Of a DNA stretch of 44,134 nt, positions 10,495 to 44,134 are shown piece after piece. Numbering within the stretch: position 1 is the stretch's first letter; every line of letters starts with the position of its first letter. The position numbers and the translations under genes are program-made. The notes under the pieces were generated by a model. That model did not search any database and was not told the DNA's origin. It saw only the letters and a list, made by a program, of their open reading frames with translations. Source of the DNA: an uncultured Megasphaera sp. (lineage in GTDB: Bacteria; Bacillota; Negativicutes; Veillonellales; Megasphaeraceae); NCBI GenBank assembly GCA_900548635.1, contig URLP01000001.1, forward strand, positions 1-44,134, read 5' to 3'.

Positions 10495-10519
10495 TCTGGA
10501 TCAGGAGATGTTTGTTTAA

Positions 10520-11455
10520 ATGGAAATGTTATCGGCCATAGGGCCTTTCTTCGTCGCCGGCCTCCTGGGCACTGTGTTCGCCCGCTTCACGGGTATCAAT
10601 ATGAGCATGTGCGTCCTCCTCATGTTCCTCTACATGGGGGCCAAGCCTGTCGAATGCATCGCCGCTATGTTGATGTTCAATGTCTTTACGTATTTCACGG
10701 TCTACTCGCAGCTTCACGTCATGAAGATCAAGAGTTTCACCTTCTTCCCGGGCGTGCGTCTGGCCATCCCGATTTTAATCACCATCGCTTTGGCAGCCAT
10801 TAGCCCGTTCATTGGTATCGTCTTCTTCGTCTTTACGTTCCTCATGGAAATCTTTGCCAAGATTTATAAGGAAATGGACATTAAGTCGCGGCCGACGAAG
10901 GGGAAAATCGGTCAGATGGTCGTCATCGCCGGCATCCTGACGACAATTGGCACGGCCCTCGTCCAGTTCGTCCCGGAAAATTATTACTACATCGTCGCCG
11001 GCGTGGCCATCCTCGTCTACTGCTTCGTCATGTGGCGCAGCAGCGACCGCCGCAAAGGCTTGACGCTCTGGGATAAACTCCTCTACGCCTCGACCTTCGT
11101 CACCGGCCTGAGCGGCATCGATGCGACGGATTGGATCCATGCGCAGCACCGCAATCCGGAATCGGTCCTCTCGCGCTGCTATCCGATCGTTATCAACAGC
11201 GCGATGATCATCGCGCTCCTCGCTTCGTACGCTATGTACCAGTATTTCTCCTTAGGGGCACTCTTCGCCACCATCGGCTCGGCCGTCGGCATCCGCCTCT
11301 TCGGCTTATACGGTCACAGCGATAAAGGAAGTTTCTCGTACCTGACCCTGGGCATTGCCGTCCTGGTCGCCCTGGTCTTCATGATCATCCAGCCGGTACC
11401 GACAGGCTTCCCTGTCGTGCCCATGGCAGATGACACAGGATTCTTTAATTTCTAG
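10520..11455 (+). CDS. Multi-pass membrane protein of unknown function
   Basis: AGGAG RBS; many hydrophobic segments; 25 bp after pyrE. Confidence 0.8.
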   Translation: MEMLSAIGPFFVAGLLGTVFARFTGINMSMCVLLMFLYMGAKPVECIAAMLMFNVFTYFTVYSQLHVMKIKSFTFFPGVRLAIPILITIALAAISPFIGIVFFVFTFLMEIFAKIYKEMDIKSRPTKGKIGQMVVIAGILTTIGTALVQFVPENYYYIVAGVAILVYCFVMWRSSDRRKGLTLWDKLLYASTFVTGLSGIDATDWIHAQHRNPESVLSRCYPIVINSAMIIALLASYAMYQYFSLGALFATIGSAVGIRLFGLYGHSDKGSFSYLTLGIAVLVALVFMIIQPVPTGFPVVPMADDTGFFNF

Positions 11456-34886: not shown

Positions 34887-36224
34887 TTAATGCCCTGCCG
34901 GTGCCTGGGCGTTGGCTTTGGCACTGAGGAGGACGTCTTTCTTTGTAGCGCCGTTGACTTTATATTTCAAGGTCAGGATGAGGAGACCAGCGCAGAACAT
35001 GAAGACGGCCATCAGGTAGTAGCCGAGGTCGAAGCTGCCTGTCTGGGCCTGGACCCAGGCCATCATGTTCGGACCGAACATGCCGCCCAGGTTGCCGCAG
35101 GAGTTGATGAGGGCGATGGAGCCGGCAGCGGCCGGGCCGGAAAGGAAGGTCGTCGGGATGGTCCACCATACACCCATGGAAGCGTGGATGCCGATGGCCG
35201 AGAGGCAGATGAGGAAGAGGGCAGCGCCCATGCTGTGAGCGAAAGGCGAGAGGCCGAGGCCGACGGCGCCGACGGCGAGGCAGCCAAAGACGTGCCATAC
35301 TTTATCGCCCGTAACGGTAGCCGTATGGCCGATGACGAGCTGGACGACGAGAGCCGCCATCATGGGGATGGCGATGGCGCCACCGATGAGGGACGTGGAC
35401 CAGCCGGAGAGGTTCTTGAGGACTGTCGGCATCCAGAAGTAGAAGCCCCAGAAACCAACGACCCAGAGGAAGTAGATGAGGCAGAGTTTCAATACTTTAG
35501 GATCTGTGAATGCCTGGAGAACGGTGTATTTCTTGACGCTCTGCATCTTGGCCTGTTCTTCATTGTACATGGTCGTGAGGTATTCTTTTTCTGCATCCGT
35601 CAGCCACGAAGCCTGGTCGGGACGGTCTTTGACGGCAAAGAAGAAGTAGAAAGCAAAGCAGAGAGCCGGGATGGATTCGAGGATGAAGAGTTCCTGCCAG
35701 CCGAGGAGACCGAAGAAAGAGTGTTCCAAAAGGACGCCGGCAATCGGTGCGCCGATGATCGTCGAGAGCAGGAGGGACGTCAGCATGAGCGACGTAGCGC
35801 GGGCCCGTTCAGCTGCCGTGAACCAGCGTGGGAACAAGAGAGAATAGATGACCGGATAGAGACTGGCTTCTGAAGCGCCCAAGAGGAAGCGGCAGAGGTA
35901 GAACTGCCATTCCGTCGTGACGAAGGCCATGCAGAGGCTGACAGCGCCCCAGGTGAACATGATGCGGGAAATCCATTTCGATGCCGAGAACTTAGCGGCA
36001 AAGAGGGAACCCGGGATTTCCAGGAGCAAGTAGCCAGCGAAGAAGATGCCGGCGCCGAAGCCGTAGACTTCCGGCGAGAGCCAGGGCAGGGTCTGGGTCA
36101 TGGTCAGTTTGGCATAGGAAATATTGACGCGGTCGATGCAGGCTATAATCGAGACGAGAAAGACCGGTAAAATGATGCGAAGATCTCTCCGTCGTTTAAG
36201 ACTGTCGAAATTGATGTTTTCCAT
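34887..36224 (-). CDS. MFS transporter, anion:cation symporter-like (TtuB/HpaX-type)
   Basis: IDRVNISYA, GIFFAGYLLLEIPG, RIMFTWG, RFLLG, LINSCGNLGG. Confidence 0.92.
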   Translation of the reverse strand: MENINFDSLKRRRDLRIILPVFLVSIIACIDRVNISYAKLTMTQTLPWLSPEVYGFGAGIFFAGYLLLEIPGSLFAAKFSASKWISRIMFTWGAVSLCMAFVTTEWQFYLCRFLLGASEASLYPVIYSLLFPRWFTAAERARATSLMLTSLLLSTIIGAPIAGVLLEHSFFGLLGWQELFILESIPALCFAFYFFFAVKDRPDQASWLTDAEKEYLTTMYNEEQAKMQSVKKYTVLQAFTDPKVLKLCLIYFLWVVGFWGFYFWMPTVLKNLSGWSTSLIGGAIAIPMMAALVVQLVIGHTATVTGDKVWHVFGCLAVGAVGLGLSPFAHSMGAALFLICLSAIGIHASMGVWWTIPTTFLSGPAAAGSIALINSCGNLGGMFGPNMMAWVQAQTGSFDLGYYLMAVFMFCAGLLILTLKYKVNGATKKDVLLSAKANAQAPAGH

Positions 36225-36271: not shown

Positions 36272-36525
36272 ATAAAAAAGACTCCCGTCCACAAGGGACG
36301 GAAGTCATATCCGCGGTACCACCCAATATTCCTCGCCAAAAAAGCAAGGCACTTTTCAACGTACTATCATACGCGTTTCCTGTAACGTGGATCAGACGGT
36401 GCAGTTTACTTGGTTCGACTGCAATTCTCGGAGATGATTTTCCATTTTCCTTCCATCGCCGGCTTTCACCATACCCGGCTCGCTGTGCACTTCCGTAAAA
36501 ATGTACTCTTTCTCGTCATTGAATG
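36272..36525 (-). ncRNA. T-box riboswitch, Ile specifier
   Basis: Minus strand AGTA/GAA loop with GAAA-ATC-A (36436-36438); TTGGGTGGTACCGCGG; terminator GACTTCCGTCC-CTTGT-GGACGGGAGTC-TTTTTT; TTGACA-17-TATGAT promoter 36562-36590. Confidence 0.92.
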
Positions 36526-36672
36526 TCAATGTATATACTCGATGTTTAACTTACGGTCCCAATCATAGACCATGGGAATCGATTTGTCAAGCTTTTTGTC
36601 GTAAAAAGAATTATCCCTTGAAGGTTTCTGCTGTTATTCCTGTTTCTTTTTTTCTTAGGTTTGCCGTCAACG

Positions 36673-36710: not shown

Positions 36711-37061
36711 TGGTGGAGATGAGGAGAGTCGAACTCCTGTCCGCAAATGCTGCCCCATGAACTTCTCCGAGCGCAGACCTTGTTAGGATCTTAAACCGTT
36801 TTCGTACAAGGACAAACTAGACGATTCCAGCCTGTGAGTTTCCCAACACGGCTGCCAGGCAAAGCCATGCGGTATCCCGCTAAGTGACGTCTGCGAGCTG
36901 CCCGCAGGATTAGCAGCAGGAGACGTTAGCCGCACTTAGGCAGCTAAAGCAAAATTGTTTTCTTTTGCGTTTAATTTGAAAGGTTCACCGATTTACGGGC
37001 AGATGAAACCCCGGCTCGCTATTCATGATACAACCATCCACGTCGAAACCTTTACATCCCC
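36711..37061 (-). ncRNA. ssrA: tmRNA; tag peptide (A)AKENNFALAA
   Basis: 5' GGGGATGTAAAGGTTTCGAC; 3' GGACAGGAGTTCGACTCTCCTCATCTCCACCA; tag frame 36936-36968. Confidence 0.97.
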
Positions 37062-37369
37062 ATGCATGGGGACACTGGAAGCGTGGATACGCATACGCTT
37101 TCAGTACTATTAAGTATAACACAGATTTTACCCTTTGCCAATAGCTATAAGGTATGTAAATAGAATATTACAAATGATGGAAAAACAGGCTATATGACGT
37201 CTTATATGCTACACTAATTAAAATTTAGCGCGGCATATTGGGAATATAATTTTACAAAACGGTCAAAATAGTATACACTATGAATGTACAAAGTTGAAGT
37301 AAGGTAGCCTTTTTGGACTGCCTGTGGGTCAGGCACAGCTTCCCCGATTATCTGCAAGGAGGAAAAAAC

Positions 37370-38383
37370 ATGACAGTAAAAGTAGGTATCAGCGGTTTTG
37401 GCAGGATTGGCCGCTGCACGCTCCGTACGTCCCTGCTGCAGCCGGAAATTGAAATCGCAGCTATCAATAATCGTTCCGTAGGTCCCATCATGGCGGATCT
37501 CTTGAAATTCGACACCGTCCACGGCCGCTGGGATCACGATGTATCCTATGATGAAGCAAAGAGCCAGCTGATCATCGACGGCCGCCGCATCCCCGTCACG
37601 AACGACACGGATCCGGCCGATATTCCCTGGAAGAAACTGGGCGTCGACATCGTCGTCGAATCGACGGGTAAGTTCAAAGACCGCAAATCGGCGTCGAAGC
37701 ACCTGGCCGGCGGCGCAAAGCGGGTCATTATCACGGCACCGGGCAAGGATCCGGATAAGACGATTGTCATGGGCGTCAATGAAGAAACGTACGATCCGGA
37801 AAAGCACCGCATCATTTCCAACGGCTCGTGCACGACGAACTGCCTGGCGCCGGTCGCCAAGGTCCTCTCCCGGGAATTCGGCATCGTCCGCGGCATGATG
37901 ACGACGGTCCATGCCTATACGAACGACCAGCGCCTCGTCGACGGCGTCCATAAAGACCTGCGCCGGGCTCGCTGCGCCACCCAGTCCATCATCCCGACCT
38001 CGACAGGGGCGGCAAAAGCCGTAGCCCTCGTCCTGCCGGAACTGCAGGGCAAATTCATGGGCATGGCCCTGCGCGTGCCGACGCCGAACGTCTCCATGAC
38101 GGACCTCGTCGCCGTCCTGGAAAAGAAAGTCACTGTCGAAGAAGTCAACAGTGCGCTCAAGAAGTGGGCTGAAGGACCGCTCAAAGGCATTATGGCCTAT
38201 TCGGAATCGCCGACCGTTTCTTCAGACTATATCAGCGATCCCCACAGCTCCATCGTCGATGCGCTGGATACACAGATCGTCGACGGCGATATGATTAAAG
38301 TCGTGGCCTGGTACGACAACGAATGGGGTTATTCGCTCCGTGTCAACGACCTGGCAGCATATATGGCATCGAAAGGCATCTAG
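37370..38383 (+). CDS. gap: Type I glyceraldehyde-3-phosphate dehydrogenase paralog 1 (possibly NADP-preferring)
   Basis: [47 protein letters not shown]. Confidence 0.93.
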   Translation: MTVKVGISGFGRIGRCTLRTSLLQPEIEIAAINNRSVGPIMADLLKFDTVHGRWDHDVSYDEAKSQLIIDGRRIPVTNDTDPADIPWKKLGVDIVVESTGKFKDRKSASKHLAGGAKRVIITAPGKDPDKTIVMGVNEETYDPEKHRIISNGSCTTNCLAPVAKVLSREFGIVRGMMTTVHAYTNDQRLVDGVHKDLRRARCATQSIIPTSTGAAKAVALVLPELQGKFMGMALRVPTPNVSMTDLVAVLEKKVTVEEVNSALKKWAEGPLKGIMAYSESPTVSSDYISDPHSSIVDALDTQIVDGDMIKVVAWYDNEWGYSLRVNDLAAYMASKGI

Positions 38384-38531
38384 GAGATAAAGAATGATTA
38401 CTAAATACATAGAATAAAATAGAAATTCATGTCACAATGTTCATAGCAGGTATAAGGATAGAAGGTGAACATTATGACGATGTATATTCTTCTATGTTTT
38501 ACATACCAGAAGAGAGGAAAGGGTGTATAGC

Positions 38532-39557
38532 ATGGTAAAAGTTGGTATTAACGGATTCGGGCGCATCGGCAGAAGCTTCTTCAAGATTGCCCAGCGCTAT
38601 AAAGATGAAATTGAAATCGTCGGCATCAACGATGTGGGCTCGCCGAAACAGATGGCGCATCTGCTGAAATATGACAGTATTTACGGGCCCATGAAGAAGA
38701 AGGTCACCTATGATGCCAGCAACATCATCGTCGATGGCAAGGCTTATCCCCTGTTCCAGCAGCAGGACGTGAAGAACGTCGACTGGAATGCCTTGGGCGC
38801 CCAGATTATCATCGAATCGTCGGGGAAATACGCCGGCCGCCGCACACCGAGCTCCCAAGACCGACTGCCTCTGGGCGGCAGCGTCAAGAAAGTCATCATT
38901 ACGGCACCGTCGACCATCGACGATATCACCATCGTCCTCGGCGTCAATGAAGATAAATATAATCCGAAGAAGCACCGCGTTATTTCCTGCGCGTCCATGA
39001 CGACCTGCGGCCTGGCAGCCATCCTCAAGCTGATGGACGATACGTACGGCGTCAAGCGCGGCATGACGACGGCCATCCATTCGTACACGACGGACCAGAA
39101 GATCCTCGACGTCTCGCATAAGGATTTCCGCCGCGCCCGTGCGGCCGGCGCGTCCATCATCCCGACGACGACAGGCGCTGCCGAAGCGATTACGAAAGTA
39201 CTGCCCCAGTTCAAAGGGAAATTGAGCTGCCGCGCCGTCCGCGTGCCGACGCCGGACGTCTCCATCGTCGACATCGTCCTGGAACTAGATGATAAGAACG
39301 TAACCCTGGAAGACCTGAACAGCACGCTGAAGAAAGCCGCTGCCTGGAAATACAGAGGCATCATCGACACCAATGAAGACGAACTCGTCTCCGTCGACTA
39401 CCGCGGCAACGAATATACGACGACCGTCGATATCCCCCTGAACATGGTCATGGAAGGCGGCATGGTCAAGATCTTCGCCTGGTACGACAACGAATGGGGC
39501 TACGCCCGCCGTGTCGTAGAAATGGTTAAGTATTTGACCTCGCAGGGACTGGAGTAA
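38532..39557 (+). CDS. GAPDH-family protein with substituted active site (SCASMTTCG)
   Basis: [40 protein letters not shown] retained; catalytic Cys position is Met. Confidence 0.9.
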   Translation: MVKVGINGFGRIGRSFFKIAQRYKDEIEIVGINDVGSPKQMAHLLKYDSIYGPMKKKVTYDASNIIVDGKAYPLFQQQDVKNVDWNALGAQIIIESSGKYAGRRTPSSQDRLPLGGSVKKVIITAPSTIDDITIVLGVNEDKYNPKKHRVISCASMTTCGLAAILKLMDDTYGVKRGMTTAIHSYTTDQKILDVSHKDFRRARAAGASIIPTTTGAAEAITKVLPQFKGKLSCRAVRVPTPDVSIVDIVLELDDKNVTLEDLNSTLKKAAAWKYRGIIDTNEDELVSVDYRGNEYTTTVDIPLNMVMEGGMVKIFAWYDNEWGYARRVVEMVKYLTSQGLE

Positions 39558-39651
39558 TTAAAATTTGCAGTTTGTAGTTTGCAGTTTGTAGCAGTTTGAT
39601 GTTTGCAGCTGTGGGTGTTTTCGGCAAACGAACCACGCCAAACGAACCACG

Positions 39652-39688
39652 AAAGGGGCTCGTCGCTTCGCGACAGCCCCTTTTTTTG
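39652..39688 (+). terminator. Terminator after the gap paralog pair
   Basis: AAAGGGGCTCGTCGC-TTC-GCGACAGCCCC-T8. Confidence 0.8.
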
Positions 39689-39781
39689 ATGCATTTTATT
39701 CCCATCTTTTACACGCTCTTTATGGTGCTTATGATATAATAAAATGTAGAATCACTATCCTAGGAAAGAAGGTTTTTTGTT

Positions 39782-40546
39782 TTGCTCTTATATATCATTA
39801 AATGGCTTTATGCCTGGATCCTGCCGATGGGCGGCATTGTCCTGGCACTGCTCATCCTGATCTTTTACATGTTCCGCAGGAAGAGTCAGGGCCGCTGGGT
39901 GCTGGCTGTGATTACGGCTGTCTTTTATCTCCTCTCTATCGAACCTGTGTCGAATGCCCTTATCCATCCCCTGGAAACGGCTTATGACCAGCCCCGGGGC
40001 GCGGATGCCCAGGGCGATGTCATCGTCCTCCTCGGCGGCGGCTCCCGGGCCGGCGTGCCCGATTTCGACGGCACCGGCCAGGTCGGCAGTGCCGCGGCGA
40101 ACCGCTTCCTCATGGCCCTGCGCCTGCAGAAGGCCAAGGATTTGCCCATTCTCCTTTCGGGCGGTACGATCCTTAAAGGCGATGCCAACGAATCGGCTAT
40201 CGAAAAGCGCATGCTCCTTTCCTTAGGCGTGCCGGAAGACAAAATCTTCATGGACGACAAGAGCCGCAATACGGCGGAAAATGCCGCTTTTTCCAAGAAC
40301 ATCTGCGCCGAACAAGGCTGGAGCCATCCCATTTTGGTGACCAGCGCCTTCCACATGCCGCGCTCGGTCCGCTTCTTCCAGCGCGAAGGCCTGGATGTGA
40401 CGCCGTATCCCTGTGATTACCACACGAGCGCCGTCACCAACTGGTCCGGTTATTCCGTCGTGCCCCAGTCGTTTTACCTCTTCAACTCCTGTTTAGCCAT
40501 CAAGGAATATGTCGGCATCGCCGCTGCTTCCTTGCGAATGCAATAA
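39782..40546 (+). CDS. YdcF/ElyC family (DUF218) membrane protein
   Basis: IVLLGGG, LSGG, SRNTAENA, LVTSAFHMPRS, KEYVG; TTG start. Confidence 0.9.
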   Translation: MLLYIIKWLYAWILPMGGIVLALLILIFYMFRRKSQGRWVLAVITAVFYLLSIEPVSNALIHPLETAYDQPRGADAQGDVIVLLGGGSRAGVPDFDGTGQVGSAAANRFLMALRLQKAKDLPILLSGGTILKGDANESAIEKRMLLSLGVPEDKIFMDDKSRNTAENAAFSKNICAEQGWSHPILVTSAFHMPRSVRFFQREGLDVTPYPCDYHTSAVTNWSGYSVVPQSFYLFNSCLAIKEYVGIAAASLRMQ

Positions 40547-40664: not shown

Positions 40665-41708
<1,044 letters not shown>

Positions 41709-41770: not shown

Positions 41771-41808
41771 AAAGGGGCTGTCGCTCGCGCGGCAGTCCCT
41801 TTTATTTT
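41771..41808 (+). terminator. Terminator-like hairpin between gap and gpmI
   Basis: AAAGGGGCTGTCGC-TCGC-GCGGCAGTCCCTTTTATTTTTT. Confidence 0.65.
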
Positions 41809-41838: not shown

Positions 41839-43362
41839 ATGACGAAAAAGAAACCTGTAATGCTGGTCATCATGGATGGTTTTGGCTGCAGCCCTATCGC
41901 CAAAGATAACGCCGTAGCCCAGGCAGATCTCAAGGTCCTGCCGAAACTTTGGAAAGAATATCCCCATTCCTATCTCGGCGCTTCCGGTGAAGATGTTGGT
42001 CTGCCGGACGGCCAGATCGGCAACTCGGAAGTAGGGCATCTCAATATCGGCGCAGGCCGCATTGTCTATCAGGCACTGACGAAGATCACGAAGGACATCA
42101 AAGATGGTGCTTTCTTCAAGAAACCGGTCCTCGTCGAAGCTATGGAAAACGCCAAGAAGAACGACTCGGCCCTCCATCTCTTAGGCCTCGTCTCGCCGGG
42201 CGGCGTCCACAGCAGTGAACAGCATCTTTACGGTCTTTTGGAAATGGCCAAGCGCTATGACTTGAAGAAAGTCTACATCCACGCCTTCCTCGACGGCCGC
42301 GACGTACTGCCCCGCAGTGCCGGCGAATACCTGAAGGAACTGGAAGACAAATGCGCAGCACTCGGCGTCGGCGAAATCGCTACGATCAGCGGCCGCTATT
42401 ATGCCATGGACCGCGACAAGCGCTGGGAACGCGTCGAAAAAGCCTACGATGCCGTCGCTCTCGGCGAAGGCCCGCAGGAAGCGGATGCCCAGACATGCCT
42501 GGAACATTCCTATGCCGCAGACATTTCCGACGAATTCGTCATTCCGACTGTCATCCATAAACACCCCGTTCAGGACGGCGACAGCATCGTCTTCTTCAAC
42601 TTCCGCCCGGACCGTGCCCGTCAGCTGACGACGGCTTTCGTCGTTCCCGATTTCGATGGCTTTAAACGGCCGAAGAAGCTCGATACGTACTTCGCCACCA
42701 TGACCCGCTATGAAGATGACCTGCCGGTCCACGTCGTCTACGATAAGGAACGCATCCCGGATACGCTCGGCGAAGTCCTGGCCAAGGCCGGCAAGACGCA
42801 GCTGCGCATCGCTGAAACGGAAAAATACGCGCACGTCACGTATTTCTTCAACGGCGGCGAAGAAGAACCGAACCCCGGCGAAGACCGCATCCTCGTACCG
42901 TCGCCGAAGGTCGCGACCTATGATCTGCAGCCGGAAATGAATGCGCCTATCGTCACGGAAAAAGTCATCGAACAGATCAAAGCCGACAAATACGACATGA
43001 TCATGCTCAACTTCGCCAACCCCGACATGGTCGGCCATACAGGCGTCCTTTCGGCAGCCATCAAGGCCGTCGAAACCGTCGATACCTGCGTCGGCAAGAT
43101 TATCGATGCCCTGCTGCCGATGAACGGCCAGCTCCTGATCATCGCCGACCACGGCAATGCCGAAAAGATGGCGGACCCCGAAACGGGATGCCCCTATACG
43201 GCACATACGACGAACCACGTACCGTGCATTTTGGTCAGTGAAGCCCACAAGGACGGCCATCTCCACGACGGTATCCTGGCCGACGTGGCACCGACCATGC
43301 TGACCCTGGCCGGTATGGATATCCCCGCTGAAATGACGGGCAAATGCCTGCTCGACCAGTGA
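41839..43362 (+). CDS. gpmI: 2,3-bisphosphoglycerate-independent phosphoglycerate mutase
   Basis: GNSEVGH, GRYYAMDRD, NFRPDRAR, AETEKYAHVT, NPDMVGH, ADHGNAE. Confidence 0.98.
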   Translation: MTKKKPVMLVIMDGFGCSPIAKDNAVAQADLKVLPKLWKEYPHSYLGASGEDVGLPDGQIGNSEVGHLNIGAGRIVYQALTKITKDIKDGAFFKKPVLVEAMENAKKNDSALHLLGLVSPGGVHSSEQHLYGLLEMAKRYDLKKVYIHAFLDGRDVLPRSAGEYLKELEDKCAALGVGEIATISGRYYAMDRDKRWERVEKAYDAVALGEGPQEADAQTCLEHSYAADISDEFVIPTVIHKHPVQDGDSIVFFNFRPDRARQLTTAFVVPDFDGFKRPKKLDTYFATMTRYEDDLPVHVVYDKERIPDTLGEVLAKAGKTQLRIAETEKYAHVTYFFNGGEEEPNPGEDRILVPSPKVATYDLQPEMNAPIVTEKVIEQIKADKYDMIMLNFANPDMVGHTGVLSAAIKAVETVDTCVGKIIDALLPMNGQLLIIADHGNAEKMADPETGCPYTAHTTNHVPCILVSEAHKDGHLHDGILADVAPTMLTLAGMDIPAEMTGKCLLDQ

Positions 43363-43402
43363 TTAAACATTGTTCTATCGCATCATGAAGGGAGAGAGTA
43401 AG

Positions 43403-44134
43403 ATGGAACAAGATACACTGAGTATCTTTCAAAAAATAGCTCCCGATGTCATGGGAACAATCAAAGAACGATATTTACTGCTGCGGCATATTGCCGACGC
43501 AGAGCCTGTCGGACGCCGTACACTGGCGGGCCTTTCGGGCCTTTCGGAACGCGTCGTCCGCTCCCATGTCGACGTCCTGCGGCGCAGCGGCATCGTGCGC
43601 TTCACGACCCTGGGCATCGCCATGGAGCCGGAAGGCAAGCGCCTCATGCCGGACCTTCTGGAATGTTTCCTGCGCCTCAACAACCTCGACGACATGCAGC
43701 GCCAGATCCGGCAGAAACTGGGCCTGAAGAATGTCTATATCGTTCCCGGTGACAGTGACAGCGATAAGACGGCAAAAGAAGAACTGGGACGCCGCGGCGC
43801 CCTGCTCCTGAATGACCTTTTCGGCAGCGTCGATACCGTCGCCATCAGCGGCGGCTCGACCATGGCCGAAGTGGCGCGCATGCTGCCGGAATGCCTGGCC
43901 AACGTCACCATCCTGCCGGCCCGCGGCAGCATGGGCAACCACGTCGAAGTCCAGGCCAACTACATTGCGGCCAACGTTGCCGCCAAGACCCACAGTTCGT
44001 ACCGCATGATCCACATCCCGGAAGGCCTGAGCGATTCAGCCCTGCAGATGATGCTCAAAGCCGACCGTCAGACCCAGGAAAACGTAGCCATGACGGCCCG
44101 GGCCCAGGTCGTTATCTTCGGCATCGGCCGGGCC
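43403..44134 (+). CDS. cggR: Central glycolytic genes regulator (SorC/DeoR family), 3' truncated; not in ORF track
   Basis: Hand translation MEQDTLSIFQKIAPD..ERYLLLRHI..EPVGRRTLA..LSERVVR..VPGDSD..AISGGSTM..PARG. Confidence 0.9.
   Translation, partial: MEQDTLSIFQKIAPDVMGTIKERYLLLRHIADAEPVGRRTLAGLSGLSERVVRSHVDVLRRSGIVRFTTLGIAMEPEGKRLMPDLLECFLRLNNLDDMQRQIRQKLGLKNVYIVPGDSDSDKTAKEELGRRGALLLNDLFGSVDTVAISGGSTMAEVARMLPECLANVTILPARGSMGNHVEVQANYIAANVAAKTHSSYRMIHIPEGLSDSALQMMLKADRQTQENVAMTARAQVVIFGIGRA

Follow-up and report, generated by a model that had tools for sequence, protein, structure and literature searches.

The window analyzed here, a stretch of 44,134 nucleotides from an uncultured Megasphaera sp. 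(contig URLP01000001.1 of assembly GCA_900548635.1; 202 contigs, 82% complete), carries on its forward strand, at 38532..39557 with the stop codon included, a gene for a 341-residue homolog of type I glyceraldehyde-3-phosphate dehydrogenase (GAPDH) that has methionine at the nucleophile position. GAPDH is a textbook enzyme, and its cysteine nucleophile is treated as defining. We call the gene gapX(Met), where gapX stands for the lineage ortholog at an identity of at least 70%, and we use gapP2 for paralog 1, directly before it, and gapP3 for paralog 3, further downstream; these three are the only GAPDH genes in the assembly. The identification draws on the open reading frame (ORF), Pfam matches, alignment and a comparison of orthologs. 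An alternative in-frame GTG start at 38523 is conceivable; all gapX orthologs begin with MVKVGI at the ATG.

The methionine, Met156, is encoded by ATG at 38997..38999, the catalytic Cys position, where relatives have TGC or TGT. It is flanked by Cys153 at -3 (TGC, 38988..38990) and Cys159 at +3 (TGC, 39006..39008), and His183 (CAT, 39078..39080), all on the forward strand, is the retained catalytic-base histidine, as judged from sequence, alignment and its invariance across orthologs. A preliminary description of this DNA had reported the full-length frame and the first three codons as we find them. The active-site stretch reads VISCASMTTCGLAA, and a longer excerpt around the nucleophile site reads HRVISCASMTTCGLAA; it departs from the canonical motif at five of 12 residues (N>C, C>M, N>C, C>G, P>A), so that A-S-M-T-T stands where the nucleophile motif of type I GAPDH has A-S-C-T-T. 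The preliminary description was right that this is no single-base error, as the recurrence of the codon in five genomes and an independent assembly indicates, but it had counted four substitutions.

The remainder of the protein is that of a GAPDH. In an alignment of the three paralogs, gapX(Met) keeps GFGRIGR, IND, IHSYT, RRARAA, TTTGAA, RVPTP, the S-loop and WYDNEWGY, in agreement with the earlier account of its Rossmann motif and other signatures, and both Pfam domains are matched at full length (PF00044, Gp_dh_N, residues 2-101, E 3e-32; PF02800, Gp_dh_C, residues 161-318, E 1e-53). The type I GAPDH equivalog model TIGR01534 scores it at 361.4, below the cut-off of 367.2, where gapP2 and gapP3 pass at 438 bits; every other GAPDH equivalog model likewise scores gapX(Met) under its cut-off. 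Codon usage is host-like, as previously noted, with a correlation of relative synonymous codon usage to native genes of 0.89 (0.93 for gapP2).

Authenticity and distribution of the methionine codon

A contig from an independent DNA assembly (run X6) that covers 37300-39367 shows no difference at 38997-38999, and the codon is also unchanged in an X15 RNA-library contig over 38483-39647, which spans the whole of gapX; contigs from RNA libraries are no proof of transcription. A miscalled codon or a chimeric contig, as an artifact of sequencing, assembly or binning, might be suspected in an assembly of this fragmentation and completeness, the more so as a repeat at 39618-39660 breaks other assemblies. 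The data contradict such an origin, which we regard as negligibly probable: the same codon recurs in four further genomes and independent runs, an independent contig crosses the junction of gapP2 and gapX, and, on each side of the insertion that holds the pair, synteny with the closest relatives is restored at the same site, which argues against a chimeric contig.

Orthologs of gapX occur in 23 of the 39 genomes examined in the family. The nucleophile codon is ATG in five species-level genomes (the window genome and four others) and TGC or TGT in 18; the gene in the gapX slot of one further genome, G038, is only 50% identical and bears the cysteine. The Met-type gapX sequences form one clade (ultrafast bootstrap/approximate likelihood-ratio test, aLRT, 100/98), and the nucleophile was thus lost once. 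All three bases must change to turn TGC or TGT into ATG, and therefore the site passed through other residues before it reached Met. The Met clusters hold 41 database members with coverage of the site, of which 40 have Met and one has Ile. P0292, a metagenome variant of an M. hominis-like protein, has Ile at the nucleophile position, and differs from its cluster representative at 3 of 341 residues.

A search of 5.8 billion proteins found a sharp boundary to the gapX clade, with members at 64% identity or more and ordinary GAPDHs at 53% or less. The source names within the clade are Megasphaera, Anaeroglobus and Colibacter, and most members keep the cysteine, in SGASCTTCGLAA or SGASCTTGCLAA; Met is confined to the four closest clusters, at 99, 91, 86 and 83% identity. 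When one genome per species (185,579) was scanned with a back-translated A-S-M-T-T...WYDNEWG pattern, three records matched (M. hexanoica, M. hominis and a Negativicutes metagenome-assembled genome), in a scan that demanded TCN serine codons and WYDNEWG, misses Met variants with other codons or motifs, and did not return the genome G016. Outside the family, gapX was found in none of 162 genomes of three other families, within a 201-genome sample of the order. The Met variant is widespread, being seen on hundreds of contigs, and is not unique to this strain. The Met-type proteins carry the database label "type I glyceraldehyde-3-phosphate dehydrogenase."

Constraint on gapX(Met) and its pocket

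Within the Met clade, pairwise ratios of nonsynonymous to synonymous substitution (dN/dS, by the Nei-Gojobori method) lie between 0.016 and 0.069, with dS from 0.31 to saturation; the median for Cys-type pairs is 0.070. Median dN across the same five genomes is 0.079 for gapX, compared with 0.051 for gapP2, 0.101 for gapP3, 0.148 for gpmI and 0.200 for cggR. The gapX(Met) gene, without its cysteine, is as constrained as the genuine enzymes that neighbor it. Variants seen over four sequencing runs follow the same pattern, with five synonymous and one nonsynonymous in gapX and 10 and one in gapP2.

Given that the catalytic residue is gone, and that every Met-clade genome keeps two active GAPDHs, one could suppose that gapX(Met) is a functionless passenger of gapP2, a decaying pseudogene, or a gene kept by its operon position alone. 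This is contradicted by the data, and we consider it very improbable: the ORF is intact in all five Met-clade genomes while synonymous sites are near saturation, dN/dS is low throughout, dN falls below that of gapP3, gpmI and cggR, and the pocket is specifically conserved. Thus, gapX(Met) is a selected, non-decaying GAPDH paralog without its nucleophile. In this respect the preliminary description, which had proposed a selected pseudo-GAPDH, is borne out, and the relaxed selection that would have spoken against it was not found.

Conservation of the pocket can be seen at two scales. The catalytic histidine, the Arg and Thr of the phosphate site, and the GxGxxG and Asp that bind nicotinamide adenine dinucleotide (NAD), with roles assigned from GAPDH literature, are invariant in 22 gapX orthologs and 36 distinct Met-type proteins. 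Among those 36 proteins, 102 of 341 sites vary, compared with one of 25 cofactor and substrate positions (Fisher one-sided p = 0.0012, only indicative, since the sequences are related and the 25 positions were picked from structural literature). The only varying pocket position is a singleton M156I; the other 24 are invariant.

The Met clade differs from the Cys-type sequences in only nine columns, namely C156M, L199F, G272W, D330E, F334Y, I104R, positions 105 (N105T/E) and 264, and the C-terminal residue; there was no burst of remodeling. Taken as a whole, the gapX clade differs from a set of 72 canonical GAPDHs at 19 positions, each at least 93% conserved in the latter, around the active-site helix and the anion loops, and the selected role of gapX may therefore have shifted before the cysteine was lost. 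The active-site helix, in particular, is remodeled already in Cys-type members (N153G, N159C, P163A, K218E, G233C).

The two flanking cysteines had been described as new, and as part of a C-x2-M-x2-C site for redox or metal sensing. The -3 Cys is indeed restricted, being found in 2 of 41 Met-type sequences (the window protein and its 99% twin), with Gly in 28 and Ser in 11 of the remainder, but the +3 Cys is older than Met: 18 of 22 gapX orthologs have it, most of the Cys-type ones among them, and the other four have Gly or Asn. Because the -3 Cys is species-specific and the +3 Cys already stood beside the cysteine nucleophile, there is no conserved C-x2-M-x2-C site, and the proposed sensing motif is not supported.

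The +3 Cys also bears on whether gapX(Met) might still be an enzyme, using another nucleophile (Cys159), oxidizing an aldehyde hydrate directly, or acting on a different substrate. Such a reading would be helped by the invariance of His183 and of all anion-site residues, by the presence of Cys159 in five of five Met genomes, and by the prior remodeling of the active-site helix. We nevertheless consider it improbable, as part of the clade lacks the +3 Cys, which, going by helix geometry, would lie one helical turn away from the nucleophile position, and as the natural Ile variant at that position suggests a merely hydrophobic requirement. To our knowledge, moreover, all characterized members of the superfamily use covalent cysteine catalysis.

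Gene order, co-inheritance and transfer

Directly upstream of gapX(Met) lies gapP2 (37370..38383, forward strand), a paralog with an intact active site whose status as co-inherited partner is based on alignment, model scores, co-occurrence and the gapP2 tree. It has Asn-Asn-Arg-Ser at the position of the Asp of NAD-type enzymes in 22 of 22 orthologs, which suggests a preference for the phosphorylated coenzyme, NADP. In gapX, that Asp is kept, and the S-loop has an invariant Asp-Val-Ser-His.

The two genes are separated by an AT-rich spacer of 148 bp (38384..38531, forward strand, 31% G+C), in whose forward strand no site resembling a terminator or a promoter was found; downstream of the pair, at about 39650..39690 (forward strand), comes a strong hairpin with a T-run, as the preliminary description had it. 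The RNA-library contigs, with only partial coverage in X17 and X19, are neutral on co-transcription. The hairpin is part of a repeated palindromic element with very high depth and many loose ends in run X6; the element at 39618-39660 is a repeat that occurs in many contexts, with a depth of about 940 compared with 13 and many different loose ends, and a G+C-rich, palindromic, terminator-like element of similar sequence is found at 41771-41802. Imperfect heptamers (TTTGCAG / TTTGTAG) lie at 39563-39616, just 3' of the gapX stop codon.

In relatives, the genes stand on one strand in the order DUF218-gapP3-gpmI-gapP2-cggR-gapX-pgk, such that gapX stands where a cggR-gap-pgk operon classically has its gap gene, with gapP2 directly upstream of cggR. 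The cggR gene separates gapP2 from gapX in 19 of 22 relatives, and the pair is adjacent in G004, G009, G011 and the window. The tandem arrangement is thus derived and not the rule. The three genomes other than the window's are of Cys type and have the order gapP2-gapX-pgk without cggR in between (G011 at L046, G004 at L052, G009 at L055).

Counted at an identity of at least 70%, gapP2-type genes coincide exactly with an occupied gapX slot: 24 of 39 genomes have both, and the other 15 have neither, which confirms the linkage that was to be checked. These 15 genomes have one GAPDH each, of the gapP3 type, and in all 11 of them that were examined the order is DUF218-gapP3-gpmI-cggR-pgk, with tight spacing and cggR retained. 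As cggR stays in place, two events are required every time the pair is lost or gained, and in the CarB tree (read without the row for G024) the genomes that lack the pair fall in at least two, probably three, lineages. We conclude that gapX is functionally coupled to gapP2.

In the window, the coupling extends to transfer. The two genes, and no others, make up an insertion of about 2.7 kb (37068..39779, limits defined by blastn) between ssrA and the DUF218 gene, a site that is empty in the four closest relatives examined. The CarB and SecY proteins of the window genome are 97-98% identical to those of ten genomes without the pair, compared with 90-92% for the four other Met-clade genomes, and the CarB tree places the window genome inside the clade that lacks the pair (aLRT 99), whereas the gapP2 tree places it with the Met clade at 99/99. 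At columns diagnostic of the Met clade, the window is Met-like in nine of nine for gapX and five of six for gapP2, compared with none of three for gapP3, none of three for gpmI and none of seven for cggR. Hence, gapP2 and gapX entered the window genome together, by transfer, as a two-gene insertion. No remnant of cggR is detectable in the spacer or in the flanks of the cassette, and the match of the spacer to donor-clade genomes is limited to the last 18 nt before the gapX start, the region of the ribosome-binding site. At the DNA level, the nearest donor-clade genes in the sample are about 83% identical, and therefore the actual donor is unsampled.

These patterns also bear on the possibility that gapX(Met) acts on its own, with no contact to gapP2, as a sensor of NAD(P)H or triose phosphates, a buffer, or a scaffold, for instance on pgk, CggR or RNA. 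Moonlighting GAPDHs have been described. The ancestral position between cggR and pgk in 19 of 22 relatives and the conserved pocket would suit such a role, and a 4-residue surface insertion of the gapX lineage (in the stretch SSQDRLPLGG), together with the Met-clade changes I104R and N105T/E, could form a patch for a partner. However, the gapX of the window left cggR and pgk behind and stayed with gapP2, and the phyletic coupling is likewise to gapP2, as cggR and pgk are present in all 11 of the examined genomes that lack the pair. On balance, we take a stand-alone role to be rather unlikely, though a serious contender.

The remaining features flank the cassette. Directly to its left is ssrA, the transfer-messenger RNA (tmRNA) gene (36711..37061, reverse strand; Rfam RF00023, 187.9 bits, E 3e-76), and the cassette sits at the promoter side of ssrA and not at its 3' end. 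Genomic islands usually integrate at the 3' end of the tmRNA gene. A run of GCAGTTC/GCAGGCC, related to the heptamers 3' of gapX, occurs in the closest relative, at its empty site (L057, about 10510-10550). Farther to the left, a T-box leader (RF00230, 125.7 bits; 36291-36528, reverse strand) precedes an MFS transporter gene (34887-36224, reverse strand). To the right, all on the forward strand, the first native gene is that for DUF218 (39782..40546), placed by synteny with relatives; it is followed by gapP3 (40680..41708), the third, housekeeping GAPDH gene already noted downstream, which is canonical and 99-100% identical to its counterparts in the closest single-GAPDH relatives. Next is gpmI, for phosphoglycerate mutase (41839..43362), which is syntenic and 83-94% identical in relatives and is so named from its size and place in the cluster. 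The 5' part of cggR (43388..44134) runs off the contig, and its 3' end lies with pgk on contig C198 of the same genome.

A proposed role and its known counterparts

The thioester mechanism of GAPDH requires cysteine, for which a thioether is no substitute, so ordinary turnover by gapX(Met) is very unlikely. With Met in place of the nucleophilic Cys, the canonical mechanism would no longer be possible, and the protein probably does a non-enzymatic job. From the conservation of the NAD(P) and phosphate/substrate pocket we infer that it would still bind NAD(P)(H) and phosphorylated ligands; in Geobacillus stearothermophilus GAPDH, replacement of Cys149 by Ala or Ser reportedly leaves the binding of NAD and glyceraldehyde 3-phosphate in place. 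Mixed tetramers of GAPDH paralogs are known in chloroplasts, and we therefore favor a reading in which gapX(Met) is a non-catalytic, ligand-binding partner of gapP2, probably a subunit of a mixed GAPDH oligomer, although we would doubt this about as readily as accept it. As such a subunit, gapX(Met) may tune the activity or coenzyme use of gapP2 in the manner of a "dead paralog," or prozyme. There is precedent in trypanosomatid deoxyhypusine synthase, where, in the available parts of the source (PMC3663545), a dead paralog activates the active one within a heterotetramer.

A more specific version of this proposal, which we put forward tentatively and hold to be possible rather than probable, is that of a bacterial GAPDH prozyme. 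In this version gapX(Met) would be an obligate subunit without catalysis of its own, and its pocket and S-loop would complement the putatively NADP-type gapP2 in a mixed tetramer, setting coenzyme preference or direction (gluconeogenic or glycolytic), and the pair would be a mobile metabolic module exchanged among gut Megasphaera.

Several points weigh against a partnership with gapP2 of this kind. Co-occurrence and co-transfer indicate functional coupling, not contact, and the coupling holds for the Cys-type gapX as well, so that it leaves the loss of the cysteine unexplained. No RNA contig bridges the 148-bp spacer, with none over 38358-38482 in X15. Contigs from the X15 and X17 RNA libraries, at least 95% identical over gapX, depart from the window upstream of 38483 into a common foreign sequence, and therefore a near-identical gapX exists in another genomic context. 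A transfer-corrected control showed no excess of diagnostic substitutions shared with gapX, at 1.8% for gapP2 versus 2.0% for cggR; a first count of such substitutions, taken as a sign of contact, had been confounded by the transfer and was dropped. The case for an intact pocket depends on a choice of positions made from the structural literature, and both its test and the genome counts overstate independence because the genomes and sequences are related. Finally, we infer loss of catalysis, ligand binding and physical association with gapP2 alike from sequence.

What is new is a widespread, long-conserved Met variant with its coupling to one particular active paralog, together with which it is mobile. 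Full-text literature searches found no description of a naturally Cys-less GAPDH paralog. The available excerpts of a review on aldehyde dehydrogenases apply the term "pseudoenzyme" to ALDH16 only (PMC12041015). A gene without the nucleophile, yet as constrained as genuine glycolytic enzymes, always found with one active paralog and transferred with it, would give central carbon metabolism a clear natural example of a pseudoenzyme, and would offer a tractable system for what the GAPDH fold does without catalysis. The gapP2/gapX pair would then qualify as a candidate accessory module, one with a part in redox or gluconeogenic control, and Cys-type orthologs may also hold a selected role beyond turnover. 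It would also flag a misannotation that touches metabolic models and marker-gene studies of lactate-using, caproate-producing Megasphaera of the gut and rumen. For example, as far as the accessible parts of that study indicate, "gapA" has served as a glycolysis marker in Megasphaera hexanoica (PMC12342382); its supplements gave no match for glyceraldehyde, gapA or phosphoglycerate kinase, so that the search for M. hexanoica expression data there came up empty.

Among known systems, one that shares the fold is type I GAPDH itself, represented by the G. stearothermophilus enzyme (PDB 1gd1; NADP-accepting variants 3dbv and 4dbv), with which gapX(Met) aligns from end to end (E 2e-108) at similar length. 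The likeness extends to GxGxxG and the Asp that follows the second strand, as well as to the catalytic His, the anion-site Arg/Thr residues and WYDNEWGY. Among the solved structures that match best are point variants of this enzyme, and the LDVSH of the gapX(Met) S-loop resembles the LDASH of the best PDB match, the engineered NADP-accepting 3dbv. In contrast, the Met for Cys, the score below the TIGR01534 cut-off, the 19 clade-wide changes and the 4-residue insertion set gapX(Met) apart. The Cys-type gapX of Megasphaera, Anaeroglobus and Colibacter are orthologs of gapX(Met): they are 70-78% identical to it, bear the signatures of the clade and are linked to gapP2 in the same way, but they keep the cysteine and fit the GAPDH active-site pattern, which gapX(Met) does not, and the Met clade has additionally fixed L199F, G272W, D330E and F334Y.

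More specialized GAPDH families do not accommodate gapX(Met). The models for erythrose-4-phosphate dehydrogenase (Epd) score it far below their cut-offs (NF010058, 274.8 versus 539; TIGR01532, 263.1 versus 530.55), as does the model for ArsJ-associated GAPDH (NF033735, 323 versus 450). The cluster genes seen around gapX in the window and in its relatives are gapP2, cggR, pgk, DUF218, gapP3, gpmI and MFS, in gene neighborhoods where no search was aimed at arsJ. Loss of the nucleophile is found in five full-length cases among the 150 nearest representatives of clusters at 50% identity (P0156 with Ser, P0169 with Ala, P0170 with Pro, P0194 with Asp and P0204 with Gly). Unlike gapX(Met), none of these has Met and two also lack the His; their clusters have one to four members and are labeled "glyceraldehyde 3-phosphate dehydrogenase" or are unnamed. 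Three other proteins among the nearest cluster representatives, P0124 (2089 residues), P0140 (1862 residues) and P0243 (958 residues), contain one to four GAPDH-like stretches and may be fusions or repeats.

For a mixed oligomer, the chloroplast GapA/GapB enzyme offers a parallel within the fold, as two GAPDH paralogs share one mixed tetramer in its A2B2 form. Both of its subunits are catalytic, and GapB has a regulatory C-terminal extension. That extension is without counterpart in gapX(Met), whose 341 residues end with the usual C-terminal helix of the family. By sequence, the chloroplast enzyme (PDB 2pkq, 7q53 and others) is among the best structural relatives, at about 309 bits, with an S-loop of the Ser type. 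In its proposed logic, gapX(Met) would resemble the trypanosomatid deoxyhypusine synthase prozyme, which, in the portions of the account that are available (PMC3663545), is likewise a disabled paralog selected beside an active one; unlike that prozyme, gapX(Met) is bacterial and belongs to a pair that is mobile as a two-gene cassette.

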